Source: a virus
Taxonomy: Duplodnaviria > Heunggongvirae > Uroviricota > Caudoviricetes
Length of the DNA stretch: 5,986 nucleotides
Reading direction: 5' to 3' (one strand)
IMG/VR virus record: IMGVR_UViG_2778261446_000004
The translations under genes and the position numbers were made by a program. The notes beneath the pieces were generated by a model that searched no databases, was not told the origin of the DNA, and was given only the letters and a program-made list of their open reading frames with translations. Positions 1,678-5,684 of the stretch are shown piece after piece (position 1 is the first letter of the stretch; each line of letters opens with the position of its first letter).

Positions 1678-1700
1678 TTCGATTCCTGCAGGGGACACCA
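1678..1700 (+). other. 3'-terminal 23-nt fragment of tRNA-Arg (argW type, ...TTCGATTCCTGCAGGGGACACCA); candidate att core / direct repeat marking an integrative-element junction
   Basis: TTCGATTCCTGCAGGGGACACCA reproduces the T-loop, 3' T-stem, acceptor 3' strand and CCA end of E. coli tRNA-Arg(CCU) as I recall it. The upstream sequence (tttactt...) cannot pair as a T-stem or acceptor stem, so this is not an intact tRNA gene. It lies 161 bp upstream of the integrase start codon. Confidence 0.75.
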
Positions 1701-1861: not shown

Positions 1862-3019
1862 ATGCTCACCGTTAAGCAGATTGAAGCAGCAAAGCCGAAA
1901 GAAAAACCATACCGTCTTCTCGATGGTAATGGCCTGTACCTTTATGTCCCTGTGTCAGGGAAAAAGGTATGGCAGCTTCGCTACAAGATTGACGGTAAGG
2001 AGAAAATCCTGACCGTAGGAAAATATCCGCTAATGACTTTGCAGGAGGCAAGGGATAAGGCATGGACTGCGAGGAAAGACATCTCGGTTGGCATCGATCC
2101 GGTAAAGGCGAAAAAGTCTTCGTCTAACAACAATTCCTTTAGTGCGATTTACAAGGAATGGTACGAGCACAAGAAGCAAGTATGGTCAGTAGGGTATGCG
2201 ACTGAACTTGCAAAAATGTTTGATGACGACATTTTACCTATCATCGGCGGCCTTGAAATTCAGGATATTGAGCCGATGCAACTGCTGGAAGTAATCCGCA
2301 GATTTGAAGATCGCGGTGCAATGGAGCGAGCAAATAAAGCCCGCAGAAGATGCGGCGAGGTTTTCCGTTACGCTATTGTCACCGGCAGGGCTAAATATAA
2401 CCCGGCACCTGACCTTGCTGACGCCATGAAGGGATACCGCAAGAAGAACTTCCCGTTTCTTCCAGCAGACCATATCCCTGCATTTAACAAAGCACTGACA
2501 ACATTTTCAGGAAGTATCGTATCGCTCATTGCGACCAAAGTTTTACGCTACACAGCCCTAAGAACGAAAGAGCTTCGTTCCATGCTATGGAAGAACGTCG
2601 ATTTTGAAAACAGGATTATCACCATCGACGCCAGTGTAATGAAGGGACGCAAAATTCATGTGGTTCCTATGTCAGACCAGGTAGTTGAACTTCTCACTAC
2701 GCTAAGCTCAATCACCAAACCAGTATCAGAGTTTGTTTTTGCCGGGCGCAACGATAAGAAAAAGCCAATTTGCGAGAACGCTGTACTGCTTGTGATCAAA
2801 CAAATCGGCTATGAAGGTCTGGAAAGCGGTCACGGATTCAGGCATGAATTCAGCACGATTATGAACGAGCACGAATGGCCTGCTGATGCTATTGAAGTGC
2901 AACTGGCACATGCCAACGGCGGATCTGTGCGCGGGATTTACAACCATGCTCAGTATCTCGATAAGCGCAGAGAAATGATGCAGTGGTGGGCGGACTGGAT
3001 TGATGAAAAGGTCTCCTGA
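1862..3019 (+). CDS. intS: P4-family tyrosine integrase, IntS-like (argW-associated prophage integrase), 385 aa
   Basis: The translation from the ATG at 1862 (MLTVKQIEAAKPKEKPYRLLDGNGLYLYVPVSGKKVWQLRY...) matches my recollection of E. coli CPS-53/KpLE1 IntS, and that start gives 385 aa. N-terminal DUF4102-like arm-binding region. C-terminal tyrosine-recombinase catalytic residues are present (conserved Arg in LRYTALRTKELR, HGFRHEF H-x-x-R box, Tyr in GIYNHAQYL). The upstream in-frame ATG at 1826 (ORF-track start) would add 12 residues and is an alternative start. Confidence 0.9.
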   Translation: MLTVKQIEAAKPKEKPYRLLDGNGLYLYVPVSGKKVWQLRYKIDGKEKILTVGKYPLMTLQEARDKAWTARKDISVGIDPVKAKKSSSNNNSFSAIYKEWYEHKKQVWSVGYATELAKMFDDDILPIIGGLEIQDIEPMQLLEVIRRFEDRGAMERANKARRRCGEVFRYAIVTGRAKYNPAPDLADAMKGYRKKNFPFLPADHIPAFNKALTTFSGSIVSLIATKVLRYTALRTKELRSMLWKNVDFENRIITIDASVMKGRKIHVVPMSDQVVELLTTLSSITKPVSEFVFAGRNDKKKPICENAVLLVIKQIGYEGLESGHGFRHEFSTIMNEHEWPADAIEVQLAHANGGSVRGIYNHAQYLDKRREMMQWWADWIDEKVS

Positions 3020-3346
3020 TTATATCGCCGGGTTATCGTCATCGGTGGCCCGGTTAATCAGATGCGTCAGAACAACCTTCACATCCACCTCATCCAAAAC
3101 CTCACCATCCACCGTTATCAGTGCATCACCTCTACGCTTGGCAAAGTGACAACCGCCTGAGTACGAAATCAGGTAGGTGCTTTCCGGCGATGGCTTCATA
3201 CCCTTCTCTATCACAGCAAACCCATGCGATGTCTCAATCACCAGGCTGTTAGCATTTACGCCGCAGATAGTCTCTATGGTTAGCGTGCGTTCAATATAGT
3301 CTTTTGCTGGCGATGGAAAACCCACGGTTGCCTCCACTCTTGACAC
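3020..3346 (-). CDS. UmuD'-like (peptidase S24 / UmuD-MucA family) protein, N-terminally truncated and possibly degenerate
   Basis: Near the N-terminus is GFPSPAKDYIE, matching the UmuD/MucA signature (UmuD: CGFPSPAADYVEQ). Later, RGDALITVDGEV resembles UmuD HGDIVIAAVDGEF. The ORF begins only 7 residues before the GFPSPA motif (UmuD has a 24-residue cleavable arm). I could not align a G-D-S-M catalytic-serine block (the region reads SYSGGCH). GTG start with no Shine-Dalgarno. A LexA box lies 22 bp upstream. Could be a remnant or pseudogene. Confidence 0.4.
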   Translation of the reverse strand: MSRVEATVGFPSPAKDYIERTLTIETICGVNANSLVIETSHGFAVIEKGMKPSPESTYLISYSGGCHFAKRRGDALITVDGEVLDEVDVKVVLTHLINRATDDDNPAI

Positions 3347-3387
3347 TGGATAAAAACACAGTGCAAATACTGTATATCTAACCAGTA
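3340..3387 (+). promoter_or_regulatory. SOS-regulated promoter region: -35 TTGACA (3340..3345) and LexA box TACTGTATATCTAACCAGTA (3368..3387) upstream of the DinI-like gene
   Basis: The box has the CTGT-N8-CCAG arrangement (consensus CTGT-N8-ACAG). Its 3' half TAACCAGTA is identical to the E. coli dinI operator as I recall it (ACCTGTATAAATAACCAGTA). A perfect -35 hexamer TTGACA sits 22 bp upstream of the box; no clear -10 was identified. The box ends 15 bp before the ATG at 3403, and AGAGGGAAG (3390..3398) serves as RBS. Confidence 0.6.
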
Positions 3388-3402
3388 AAGAGGGAAGCTA
3401 AA

Positions 3403-3669
3403 ATGTTTGTGGAATTGGTTTATGACAAGCGCAATGTAGAGGGGCTCGAAGGGGCCAGAGAGATTATCCTGGCAGAGCTGACGAAGCGAGTGCACCAGAT
3501 TTTCCCTGATGCCGAAGTGAGGGTGAAGCCGATGCAGGCGAACGGCCTGAATAGCGATGCAAGTAAAAACGATCGGGAGAAGCTGAACCGCATGCTGGAG
3601 GATATGTTTGAAGAGGCCGATATGTGGCTGGTATCTGAGTTCCCGACCGTTCGCCAAGTTGGGCTGTAA
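3403..3669 (+). CDS. DinI-family protein (DNA-damage-inducible protein I-like), 88 aa
   Basis: Aligns by eye to E. coli DinI across its length: N-terminal M-x-V-E-L, central ELxxRV-x-x-x-FPD-x-E-V-x-V, and C-terminal acidic E-x-AD-x-W-L-VSE (DinI ends ...ESADDWFVSE). Good RBS, upstream LexA box, downstream terminator. Confidence 0.85.
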   Translation: MFVELVYDKRNVEGLEGAREIILAELTKRVHQIFPDAEVRVKPMQANGLNSDASKNDREKLNRMLEDMFEEADMWLVSEFPTVRQVGL

Positions 3670-3673
3670 TAGG

Positions 3674-3712
3674 TAGCGGACTTCTGTTTTTCATGGGAAG
3701 TCCGCTATTTTC
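3674..3712 (+). terminator. Rho-independent terminator after the DinI-like gene
   Basis: 11-bp perfect stem (TAGCGGACTTC 3674..3684 pairs with GAAGTCCGCTA 3697..3707) with a 12-nt loop, followed by TTTT (3708..3711). Starts 4 nt after the stop codon at 3667..3669. Confidence 0.7.
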
Positions 3713-3788
3713 AACGAAATATATGATCGATTCCCTGCTATAACGCATGCTATACTGCGCACACCTTTAACTATTTATTCACTTTATA

Positions 3789-5684
3789 ATGAAACTCGCA
3801 AGCAGTGGATTCAGATTTGACATCAACGGGCTGAGGGCTGTAGCCGTATTGGCCGTTATCATTTTTCACTATAAAGATTCCTGGCTTCCCGGCGGATACG
3901 CGGGTGTGGATGTATTCTTTGTGATATCTGGTTTTTTAATGACCTCTATTATTTTCTCAGGGGTTGAGAAAGGACAATTCAATCTATTTAAATTCTACGC
4001 TGCGAGAATTAAAAGAATCATCCCTGCACTTATCGCTATCTCTATGATAGTTGTTTTTCTTGGCTACTTTCTCATCGAACCATTGAGTTACCAAATGATT
4101 GGTAATCATGTGAAATCAAGCCTTCTTTTTATATCCAATATTGTATATAGAGATGAGGCTGGTTATTTTGATACGGAATCGTCAAGGAAATATTTATTAC
4201 ATACCTGGTCGTTATCTGTCGAATGGCAATTTTATTTAATTTATCCATTACTGGTAATTTTTGCTAAAAGAGCATTATCGTTTAGCAGCTTAAAGAAAAT
4301 TGTATTGGTTGCAGTATTTGTACTCTTTTTCTTGAATATTTACGTCACAAAAACCGACCCAACATCCTCATACTACATGCTTTATTCCAGGGCGTGGGAA
4401 ATGCTTCTTGGTGGTTTGGCTTTCTTATACCCTGCTAAATCGATTTCGAATAGAACAAGAAATTACGGTTCAGTTCTATGTTTGGCGGCTTTAATTGGCA
4501 CATTTTTTATTTTGGACAACCAAGACCCTTGGCCGGGATACTATGCACTTCTTCCTGTAGTTTTGGCTTTCGGCATTATTTTGTTGAATGGAAGCAATGC
4601 TTTACTTTCAAATAAGGTTATGCAGTACATAGGACTAATATCCTATTCTATTTATTTAGTTCACTGGCCCTTGTTGGTTTTTAACAGAACCTTAAACTTT
4701 GGCTTAAATTTTATTTCTTATGTCGTGATTACGTTTGCTATTGCGACATTGATTTACATGACTTTTGAGTCAAAGAGAAGAAGTGTTATCTTTACAGTTG
4801 TTTTGTACTCGATTGCTCTTGGTGTGGCATGGAAAGTTTCAGTTGCAGGCGTAACAAGTCGTGTTAACACGGAGTTTCAGTTAACCAAGCAACAATTCAG
4901 GAATAAATTTGAAGGGCACGCCGGGTTGGGTTCTTATGATAAAGTTGATTATTTTAATTCAACAGAAAATGATTTCGAATACATATTGATTGGTGATAGC
5001 CATGCTCGTCACTACTTCCAGTATATTAATAAAAATGAAAAAGTTGCCAGCCTTGCTTTAGACGGATGCAAATCTACAGAAAATTTCTATCCGACATCCC
5101 CATCACCTTTGATGATAAAACTATGTAAAGCTCGTTATAAAATGCAGGTAGATTTCATCAATGCGCACCCAGGAAAACCAGTAATATTATCACAAAGTGG
5201 TTTCGGGGTTTTACCGAGTTCATTTTCACGTGGCACTGATGAACCTATCGGTGATGGTCATGATTTCAATTCATTGGGTTTAGAAGAACTACATCTATTT
5301 ATTAATCGGATTAAAGACACTAAACATAAACTGTTTGTTATAGGTGACACGCAAGGGAGTGAAGGCGTTATGTTTGAATGCCTTGCTAAAGAAAATCTGC
5401 CAATCAATAGAATATTCAATGTAACATCCTGCCCTATAAAACAGGAATACAAACCTAAAAAATACAATCAAATTCTTGAGGCTAACGCTGAGAAGCTTGG
5501 GTATACATATATCAGCCCTGATCCTGCGCTATGTGATGGAAAAGAATGTATAATAGTTAAAGATGGTATGCCTATGTATACTGATAGTAGCCATCTTTCA
5601 AAGCTGGCCTCTGAAATTGTAGGGGACTATGTATTTAGAGAGATAAAGAAACAAGAAATTTCAACAAGCAATAAAGATAATTAA
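3789..5684 (+). CDS. Acyltransferase-3 / SGNH fusion protein (OafA/OatA-type), probable O-antigen or surface-carbohydrate O-acetyltransferase, 631 aa
   Basis: N-terminal AT3 signature (FRFDINGLRAVAVLAVIIFH, the R-x-D-x-L-R-x-x-A motif with a conserved His). About 350 aa of repeated hydrophobic segments, consistent with a multi-pass membrane domain. C-terminal soluble domain carries an SGNH block-I GDSH motif (YILIGDSHARHYF). The coding sequence looks AT-rich by eye compared with the integrase; GC content was not computed. No Shine-Dalgarno upstream of the ATG. Confidence 0.85.
   Translation: MKLASSGFRFDINGLRAVAVLAVIIFHYKDSWLPGGYAGVDVFFVISGFLMTSIIFSGVEKGQFNLFKFYAARIKRIIPALIAISMIVVFLGYFLIEPLSYQMIGNHVKSSLLFISNIVYRDEAGYFDTESSRKYLLHTWSLSVEWQFYLIYPLLVIFAKRALSFSSLKKIVLVAVFVLFFLNIYVTKTDPTSSYYMLYSRAWEMLLGGLAFLYPAKSISNRTRNYGSVLCLAALIGTFFILDNQDPWPGYYALLPVVLAFGIILLNGSNALLSNKVMQYIGLISYSIYLVHWPLLVFNRTLNFGLNFISYVVITFAIATLIYMTFESKRRSVIFTVVLYSIALGVAWKVSVAGVTSRVNTEFQLTKQQFRNKFEGHAGLGSYDKVDYFNSTENDFEYILIGDSHARHYFQYINKNEKVASLALDGCKSTENFYPTSPSPLMIKLCKARYKMQVDFINAHPGKPVILSQSGFGVLPSSFSRGTDEPIGDGHDFNSLGLEELHLFINRIKDTKHKLFVIGDTQGSEGVMFECLAKENLPINRIFNVTSCPIKQEYKPKKYNQILEANAEKLGYTYISPDPALCDGKECIIVKDGMPMYTDSSHLSKLASEIVGDYVFREIKKQEISTSNKDN

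Follow-up and report, generated by a model that had tools for sequence, protein, structure and literature searches.

A divergent pair of DinI-like and short UmuD'-like genes with two predicted LexA boxes in an Escherichia coli prophage, and its relation to the phiKO2 gp22/gp23 arrangement

DinI restrains the RecA-mediated processing of UmuD, and the occurrence of genes for these two kinds of protein side by side on a phage genome is not a new observation. Phage phiKO2 genes gp22 and gp23 are annotated as DinI and UmuD-like genes with a lexA site between them, and this din-like gene is reported to be LexA-regulated (PMC7556043). In the groove of the RecA filament DinI and UmuD engage the same features (PMC9926225), and HumD of phage P1 is described as a phage UmuD homologue that is encoded already shortened (PMC7092418). 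Here we analyze a locus in a 5,986 nucleotide (nt) stretch of Caudoviricetes DNA (IMG/VR record IMGVR_UViG_2778261446_000004; the whole stretch is called the window below) in which a DinI-family gene and a short UmuD'-like gene diverge from a spacer of 77 bp that carries two predicted LexA boxes. Three complete E. coli chromosomes (S163-2, TUM9754 and DETEC-P61) match positions 2900-3800 of the window at 99.9-100% identity. The features of the pair, in window coordinates, are as follows:

3020..3325, minus strand: short UmuD'-like gene of 101 amino acids (aa) with a GTG start; RefSeq and all relatives place the start here
3331..3335, minus strand: Shine-Dalgarno sequence GGAGG of the UmuD'-like gene, 5 nt before its GTG start
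3340..3345, plus strand: predicted -35 hexamer of the DinI-like promoter, TTGACA, a perfect consensus hexamer with a putative role
3344..3363, no strand assigned: LexA box 1, CACTGGATAAAAACACAGTG, 19.6 bits, a match to CTG-N10-CAG
3360..3367, no strand assigned: predicted overlapping -10 hexamers of both divergent promoters, from alignment and the phiKO2 annotation
3368..3387, no strand assigned: LexA box 2, TACTGTATATCTAACCAGTA, 24.0 bits, 15 bp upstream of the DinI-like ATG
3384..3389, minus strand: predicted -35 hexamer of the UmuD'-like promoter, TTTACT, with a putative 18-nt spacer to the predicted -10
3403..3669, plus strand: DinI-family (MsgA-like) gene, 88 aa (Pfam PF06183, PHROG 189, RefSeq 'DinI family protein')
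3671..3710, plus strand: stem-loop whose stem has 15 bp (-22.8 kcal/mol, z = -6.2; not one of 200 shuffles reached this stability)

The initial annotation of this DNA placed one SOS operator, at 3368..3387, between the two genes. The site itself is secure: no sequence in the window other than TACTGTATATCTAACCAGTA comes within three mismatches of the 20-nt LexA consensus, none of 200 shuffled sequences gave a match, and on a score matrix derived from 26 published E. coli LexA sites it lies above the training median of 20.4 bits. Its 3' half agrees at 9 of 10 positions with the E. coli dinI operator (ACCTGTATAAATAACCAGTA). The count of one operator was too low, since a second box, at 3344-3363, had been overlooked. 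Box 1 is separated from box 2 by 4 bp and precedes the UmuD'-like start by 19-38 bp and the DinI-like ATG by 39 bp; the best site in the window outside the spacer scores 6.1 bits. The distance of box 2 from its ATG agrees with that in the Salmonella prophage dinI homologues and msgA, whose LexA boxes are 14-19 bp from the ATG and which are induced by nalidixic acid, and chromosomal Salmonella dinI has two boxes, 19 and 42 bp from its ATG (PMC8072944). A Gifsy DinI homologue accumulates after mitomycin C treatment and its regulation needs the LexA-box region; deletion of the dinI homologues carried by Gifsy-1 and Gifsy-3 left induction reporters unchanged (PMC3121763).

Both boxes are conserved. 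We aligned the spacers of seven loci, namely the window and six relatives with the same divergent layout. Box 1 is found in all six relatives, near-identical in five and with an altered left half-site (CCGG) in the sixth (L060), and box 2 is kept in the aligned relatives as well. The two boxes persist even in the two relatives whose UmuD'-like protein is only 44% identical to that of the window, and the position of box 1 matches that of the lone box (-36 to -43) of UmuD'-like genes that have no DinI neighbor.

The same alignment suggests that the spacer holds two overlapping divergent sigma-70 promoters, which we infer from the conserved TTGACA, from the TATAAA and TATACT hexamers of the relatives and from the phiKO2 annotation. 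TTGACA is present in five of the seven loci (TTGAAT in L060 and L061) and, with a 16-nt spacer and TATAAA in the relatives, would constitute the DinI-like promoter. On the other strand the UmuD'-like promoter would consist of TTTACT, whose reverse complement AGTAAA is kept at 3384-3389 in all seven loci, an 18-nt spacer and, in the relatives, TATACT. Positions 3360-3367 read AGTATAAA in the relatives (plus strand TATAAA, minus strand TATACT) and AGTGCAAA in the window; the central spacer sequence AGTATAAAT is kept in most relatives, and the GGAGG Shine-Dalgarno sequence is intact in three of the seven loci. With these assignments box 1 would span the spacer of the DinI-like promoter and the start region of the UmuD'-like promoter, and box 2 the reverse, so LexA bound there should repress both genes. 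A consensus promoter and terminator scan of 2950-3850 called no full promoter and no terminator.

Membership of the rightward gene in the DinI family, which had been proposed by eye, was borne out by profile search. PF06183 matches its product with E 2.8e-23 (82.4 bits, cut-off 24.2; residues 16-76 on model positions 2-63 of 63), and PHROG 189, 'RecA filament binding protein DinI', matches it also. The NCBIfam DinI equivalog model gives 41 bits where its cut-off is 111, so this is a paralogue and not chromosomal DinI. By BLASTP the protein is 38% identical over residues 17-79 to E. coli DinI. The DinI residues that contact the RecA groove are L13, L21, W71, W77, F78, E24, E69 and D76 (PMC9926225). 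The BLASTP alignment shows six of these eight contacts kept or conservatively replaced (E24 and W77 are the same, E69 is D, L21 is I, W71 is F and F78 is L); D76 is lost to Met, and L13 lies beyond the alignment. The stem-loop at 3671-3710, whose 3' arm ends in a short T run that continues past it, is a probable terminator of the DinI-like transcript, and a simple terminator scan made no call there.

The leftward gene had been taken for a divergent UmuD-family reading frame that a Peptidase_S24 profile might recognize. The family assignment stands, on the strength of PHROG 3469 and a family profile; the S24 profile did not match, and the start is at 3325 and not at 3346. The protein opens MGFPSPAKDYIE (MGFPSPAKDY...), and HMMER aligns its residue 2 with UmuD Gly25. 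PHROG 3469, 'UmuD-like protein', matches residues 1-100 on model positions 1-105 of 106 (E 1.7e-35), and a profile of 111 family members aligns with residues 25-136 of UmuD (8gmt_B; E 1.5e-5, HMMER against the PDB). That alignment begins exactly at Gly25, the first residue past the RecA-stimulated cleavage site (Cys24-Gly25); hhalign of the family against the single UmuD sequence covered the first 22 columns only, with 96% probability. An AlphaFold2 (AF2) model built from 20 sequences was too weak to use (predicted local distance difference test score, pLDDT, of 58), and one built from 111 sequences (pLDDT 73) has the S24-type beta fold known from the C-terminal domains of UmuD', LexA and CI. 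By these comparisons the leftward gene is a UmuD' homologue, and, because the short family starts at the residue that matches Gly25, its members are by the same alignments made in an already 'cleaved' form ('born cleaved').

This short family is large and under constraint. Its N-terminal motif MGFPSPAxDYxE is invariant or nearly so across the 111 members, the C-terminal strand (VxVxGxxT) and the N-terminal arm are its best conserved parts, and the ratio of nonsynonymous to synonymous substitution (dN/dS) of the window gene against nine relatives is 0.09-0.20, so the gene is genuine. At 90% identity the family comprises more than 2,095 clusters, nearly all of 100-110 aa and lacking a Pfam domain, and the source records mostly say 'hypothetical protein'. 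An exhaustive search of 1.84 billion representatives returned only relatives of about 100-110 aa (317 at E<=1e-3, as representatives at 50% identity), with no bridge to full-length UmuD. Members are present in 52 records of phages of Klebsiella, Enterobacter, Escherichia, Cronobacter and Erwinia. We considered whether the gene is a frameshifted remnant of a long umuD'-like gene and ruled this out, given the large family of the same length under purifying selection. Phage SaltyDalty (L168, 3134-3466) encodes a 110-aa 'UmuD-like protein' with the C-terminal two-thirds of the short family and a different N-terminus that lacks GFPSPA; this gene is convergent to a DinI gene equipped with a LexA box of its own.

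How general are the boxes and the pairing? To answer this we gathered 160 loci with a gene of the short family, of which 80 came from species genomes and 80 from viral contigs. In 152 of them the 320 bp upstream of the UmuD'-like gene hold a LexA box of at least 14 bits, against 38 of 3,956 control segments (1%), and the box has one of two positions, -36 to -43 or about -275 to -285. A DinI-like gene directly adjoins the UmuD'-like gene in 25 of the 160, in three layouts: the divergent one of the window with its two boxes (5 loci), a divergent one with a single common box and an additional 79-aa open reading frame (ORF; 10 loci, and also phage mEp390), and a tandem one with a terminator between the genes and a box for each (10 loci). 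Among cultured phages mEp390, Eeyore, Flotzy and Phi06_2987 have the two genes adjoining. E. coli YPE10 has a spacer and a dinI-like gene that share about 85% identity with the window's, and the same two boxes, and the divergent partner there is a long, Pfam-positive S24 UmuD'-like form, which indicates that short and long forms occupy the same slot.

In about half of the loci the 79-aa ORF (PHROG 3893, no Pfam match) immediately precedes the short UmuD'-like gene, with its end at the UmuD'-like start codon, and the LexA box is then upstream of the ORF, at the more distant of the two positions. ORF and UmuD'-like gene would thus form a LexA-controlled two-gene unit; examples are L019, L027, L064 and L144 (at -245 to 0) and mEp390 (L169, about 2176-2420). 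Locus L027 also has a gene for a YedK-like SOS response-associated peptidase (SRAP) on the minus strand at +327 to +998, immediately downstream of and convergent with the UmuD'-like gene.

It had also been suggested that the two genes are not chance neighbors, and comparative genomics had been proposed as a way to see whether they travel together. Adjacency in three layouts upholds the former suggestion in part, and the loci that lack a DinI-like gene (below) count against the rest of it. As to the latter, linkage is not obligate: the DinI-like gene matches 2,409 of 5,426 E. coli genomes and the full arrangement is in 3, and most copies of either gene travel alone. The pair may, as was further suggested, tune host mutagenesis or prophage induction.

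On balance we lean toward the following account of the locus as a whole, in which LexA-repressed accessory genes would modulate RecA filaments and DNA polymerase V (Pol V). On this view two accessory ('moron') genes stand back to back at that end of a prophage which carries the integrase, both wired to the host LexA protein. In an undamaged lysogen LexA would shut off both; upon DNA damage RecA* would trigger LexA cleavage, and both genes would be released along with prophage induction. This regulatory part is very probably correct, because of the strength, position and conservation of the boxes and the experiments with homologues (above). The DinI-like protein would then bind the groove of the RecA filament, stabilize filaments and damp the RecA*-dependent processing of host UmuD, and its binding to the filament is probable. 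The UmuD'-like protein would supply a ready-made UmuD'-type subunit that pairs with host UmuC or UmuD as HumD does, and so would free translesion synthesis from the checkpoint of RecA-dependent UmuD cleavage during prophage induction on damaged DNA. That it is a HumD-like, ready-made partner of host UmuC is our first choice among its possible roles, and a tentative one.

Several observations weigh against this account. On the side of the protein family, the UmuD'-like ORF has no Pfam match at E<=1, Peptidase_S24 included, and the NCBIfam HumD and UmuD' subfamily models score 23.4 bits (cut-off 120) and 22.4 bits (cut-off 110) and cover only its N-terminal 26-43 residues. D91 and E93 of UmuD contact RecA electrostatically (PMC9926225), and by hand mapping onto the HMMER alignment these positions are Ser and Gly in the window protein. 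Our search of the literature found no experiment on the short family. There is no umuC in the prophage, so any role in Pol V must depend on the host gene, and 129 of the 160 UmuD'-like loci have no DinI-like gene within 5 kb. On the side of the window allele, GC replaces at 3363-3364 the TA of all six aligned relatives; a 15-bp in-frame deletion removes five residues (EGEVL), part of the conserved GEAIEG motif; and Gly84, a glycine in 110 of the 111 family members, is Val. The Q-type late antiterminator gene of the source prophage is split by IS1 (L170, 28673-30073), and such a prophage is probably defective for lytic growth.

Two other explanations, each possible and each less probable than the account above, take up these observations from different sides. 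One is that the genes are independent neighbors, separate LexA-controlled genes with their own operators in an accessory-gene hot spot and with no functional coupling. The interval between the integrase and attachment site and the tail-fiber genes of lambdoid prophages is such a hot spot, and O-antigen acyltransferase and gtr genes use the same slot. Besides the many loci with no DinI-like gene nearby, there are 52 of them in which the UmuD'-like gene has a lone box at -36 to -43; conversely, SaltyDalty, E. coli Rb-23 and A41 have a DinI-like gene with a box of its own, and in the tandem layout a terminator and a separate box stand between the two. Against independence, adjacency in 25 of 160 loci and in three layouts is above our expectation for two among about 60 genes per phage (relatedness being uncorrected), ten loci have a single LexA box common to both divergent units, and the long UmuD'-like form is likewise paired with DinI-like genes. 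The plasmid impCAB operon, moreover, joins the DinI-related ImpC to UmuD and UmuC homologues.

The three layouts and the single common box are also what supports the stronger idea that the two proteins work together, and the many solo copies, in a stretch that collects unrelated accessory genes (acyltransferases, gtr), are what opposes it. In its full form the short UmuD' family would be a functional partner of prophage DinI-like proteins in a joint switch on host Pol V: DinI would block the RecA-dependent maturation of host UmuD, and the phage protein would replace UmuD' on UmuC or poison UmuC. We consider such a switch unlikely.

The other explanation, which we hold to be about as doubtful as independence, is that the family is real and the window copy is a decaying remnant, poorly expressed or inactive. 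The TA to GC change is unique among the seven loci and falls inside both predicted -10 hexamers, both of which it would presumably weaken. The deletion in GEAIEG, the Gly84Val substitution at a near-invariant glycine, a GTG start where relatives have ATG and the IS1-interrupted Q gene point the same way. Both reading frames and both LexA boxes are intact, however; the allele is found at 99.9-100% identity in three unrelated isolates and forms a cluster of 11 sequences (P0001), and the assignment of the -10 hexamers is itself putative.

It is less likely still that the UmuD'-like protein is a decoy or poison subunit that binds host UmuD, UmuD' or their partners and damps Pol V mutagenesis, the direction in which DinI acts. 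In favor of this idea is the state of the active site. The core of the short family is about 10-12 residues shorter than that of UmuD'. In the HMMER alignment a Ser/Cys/Thr column (27) faces Ser60 and a near-invariant Ala (62) faces Lys97, with Lys or Arg at 63; if a single gap is placed to suit the predicted hairpin, it is the Ser60 loop that is lost, so the alignments disagree on Ser60. The GDSM motif is absent, and the Ser60-Lys97 dyad is not identifiable with confidence. The good conservation of the C-terminal strand and N-terminal arm also counts for it, and a DinI partner would likewise restrain UmuD processing. A protein that is made already 'cleaved' requires no dyad, however, so its loss is expected in any pre-cleaved homologue and does not favor inhibition. 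Engineered UmuD' tolerates S60A, and UmuD' mutagenesis reportedly does not need the catalytic serine (work of Nohmi et al., 1988). HumD, the only phage homologue known to have been tested, activates and does not inhibit.

A last explanation, that the protein is a LexA-controlled, antirepressor-like mimic of an S24 repressor C-terminal domain that binds CI or LexA and aids induction, draws on the repeated linkage of prophage DinI homologues to small LexA-controlled antirepressors such as GfoA and GftA and on Tum, an antirepressor fused to a DinI-like half (PMC3121763), and is very improbable in view of the near-invariant GFPSPAxDY, which is typical of UmuD and not of CI or LexA, of best structural and sequence matches to UmuD', of PHROG matches at E<=0.01 to UmuD-like families only and to no antirepressor of the Tum, GfoA/GftA or AntC kind, and of the prophage's own 231-aa LexA-family, CI-type repressor, which should be cleavable unaided.

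The element that carries the pair is a KplE1/CPS-53-type lambdoid prophage of about 41 kb at argW, in tandem with another IntS island. The integrase association seen at the outset is therefore that of a prophage with intS, and the lack of a visible umuC extends from the window to the whole prophage, where no umuC or Y-family polymerase is annotated in the source genome. The neighboring features in the window are:

1678..1700, plus strand: attachment-site core at the left prophage end, an exact 23-nt match to the argW 3' end of the source genome
1862..3019, plus strand: intS, a tyrosine integrase (Pfam Phage_integrase, Phage_int_M and Arm-DNA-bind_3; RefSeq 'prophage integrase IntS')
3789..5684, plus strand: 631-aa acyltransferase with AT3 and SGNH domains (Pfam Acyl_transf_3 and SGNH)

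In S163-2 the gene order from the left is argW (tRNA-Arg), a first intS copy, an O-antigen polymerase gene, IS1, a serine recombinase gene, a second intS copy (that of the window), a hypothetical protein gene, the DinI family protein gene and the acyltransferase gene; tail-fiber assembly, baseplate, tail and head genes and TerL lie to the right of the latter. The lambdoid early region has N, the LexA-family repressor, a Cro-like gene, CII, replication and nin genes, and torI is last. The 23-nt copy of the argW 3' end marks the junction between the tandem IntS elements, and ARAGORN found no tRNA gene in the window, the argW part being this core alone. The intS stop codon abuts that of the UmuD'-like gene, as it does in relative L005.

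The O-antigen polymerase gene belongs to the first IntS island at argW, and the second intS copy is the one in the window. Left of the argW 3' copy the region is flanked by the IS1 insA gene (51-326) and the serine recombinase gene (917-1543). Just upstream of the latter are three copies, two direct and one inverted, of an approximately 15-nt motif, TTGTCTCAAT(A/T)GGGT, at 784-798, 825-840 and 895-912, which may be recombinase binding sites or may delimit an invertible segment.

The acyltransferase gene at 3789-5684 has a G+C content of 34-37%, against 46-51% in its flanks, and judged by sequence is probably an O-antigen modification accessory gene outside the SOS pair. In relatives its slot is filled by other acyltransferases or by gtrABC genes. 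A functional tie between the SOS pair and the O-antigen acyltransferase, which adjoin in several loci, was considered, and we judged this to be co-location in one accessory-gene slot.

What might such genes mean for their hosts? The window locus adds nothing beyond phiKO2 and mEp390 and may be a damaged copy, and the question worth asking concerns the short UmuD' family as a whole, which is large and has a LexA box in about 95% of the loci examined, yet mostly goes by the name of hypothetical protein. If its members do act on the Pol V of the host, prophages that are very common in E. coli, Klebsiella and Enterobacter would alter SOS mutagenicity, and this would bear on the evolution of antibiotic resistance under DNA-damaging drugs. 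If the joint DinI/UmuD' switch were real, lysogeny would set the mutation rate of damaged Enterobacteriaceae.

The pair can be compared with six described systems. One is the plasmid TP110 impCAB operon, in which a small accessory protein is likewise encoded with UmuD-like and UmuC-like proteins; ImpC is a relative of DinI, the operon is SOS-controlled, and it differs from the window pair in being a three-gene, plasmid-borne operon that includes the polymerase ImpB. With DinI, MsgA and the Gifsy homologues the window DinI-like protein shares a DinI domain of about 80 aa, a C-terminal helix that is acidic and aromatic, and a LexA box at a distance of 14-19 bp from the ATG, and with chromosomal Salmonella dinI it shares the presence of two boxes near the ATG. 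Unlike DinI it has a nine-residue C-terminal extension, FPTVRQVGL, and Met in place of D76, and its gene is monocistronic, whereas the Gifsy copies head a LexA-controlled operon with an antirepressor (PMC3121763). The UmuD'-like protein resembles E. coli UmuD' in its N-terminal GFPSPAxDYxE, predicted overall beta fold, C-terminal strand and probable LexA control; unlike E. coli UmuD it has no adjacent umuC, no precursor tail and no Pfam S24 match.

HumD is phage-encoded, is without the N-terminal tail and so already 'activated', and has no phage umuC beside it (PMC7092418), and the window protein is like it in each of these respects. The NCBIfam HumD model has 129 positions, of which the window protein matches only the first 26. 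HumD is said, from the work of McLenigan et al. in 1999, to support SOS mutagenesis with host UmuC.

Coliphage mEp390 gp26 (106 aa, 46% identical to the window UmuD'-like protein) belongs to the same short family and diverges from an MsgA-type DinI-like gene, gp24, between attP and the tail-fiber gene, as is the case in Eeyore, Flotzy and Phi06_2987. It differs from the window in that the 79-aa ORF precedes its UmuD'-like gene and that one box is common to both divergent units.

In layout the pair resembles that of phiKO2, whose DinI-like gp22 and UmuD-like gp23 are divergent and stand beside tail genes. The gp23 protein starts (M/V)GFPSPA as the window UmuD'-like protein does, and the phiKO2 spacer has its annotated lexA site and overlapping -10 signals on both strands in the place that matches the window. 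Unlike the window gene, gp23 is a long form of 127 aa that matches Pfam Peptidase_S24 and PHROG 811; we found one strong box in phiKO2 where the window has two; and phiKO2 is a Klebsiella linear-plasmid prophage, unlike the argW-integrated prophage of the window. In its divergent orientation, its LexA sites within a short spacer and its place beside the tail-fiber and attachment region, the window pair is of the phiKO2 type.

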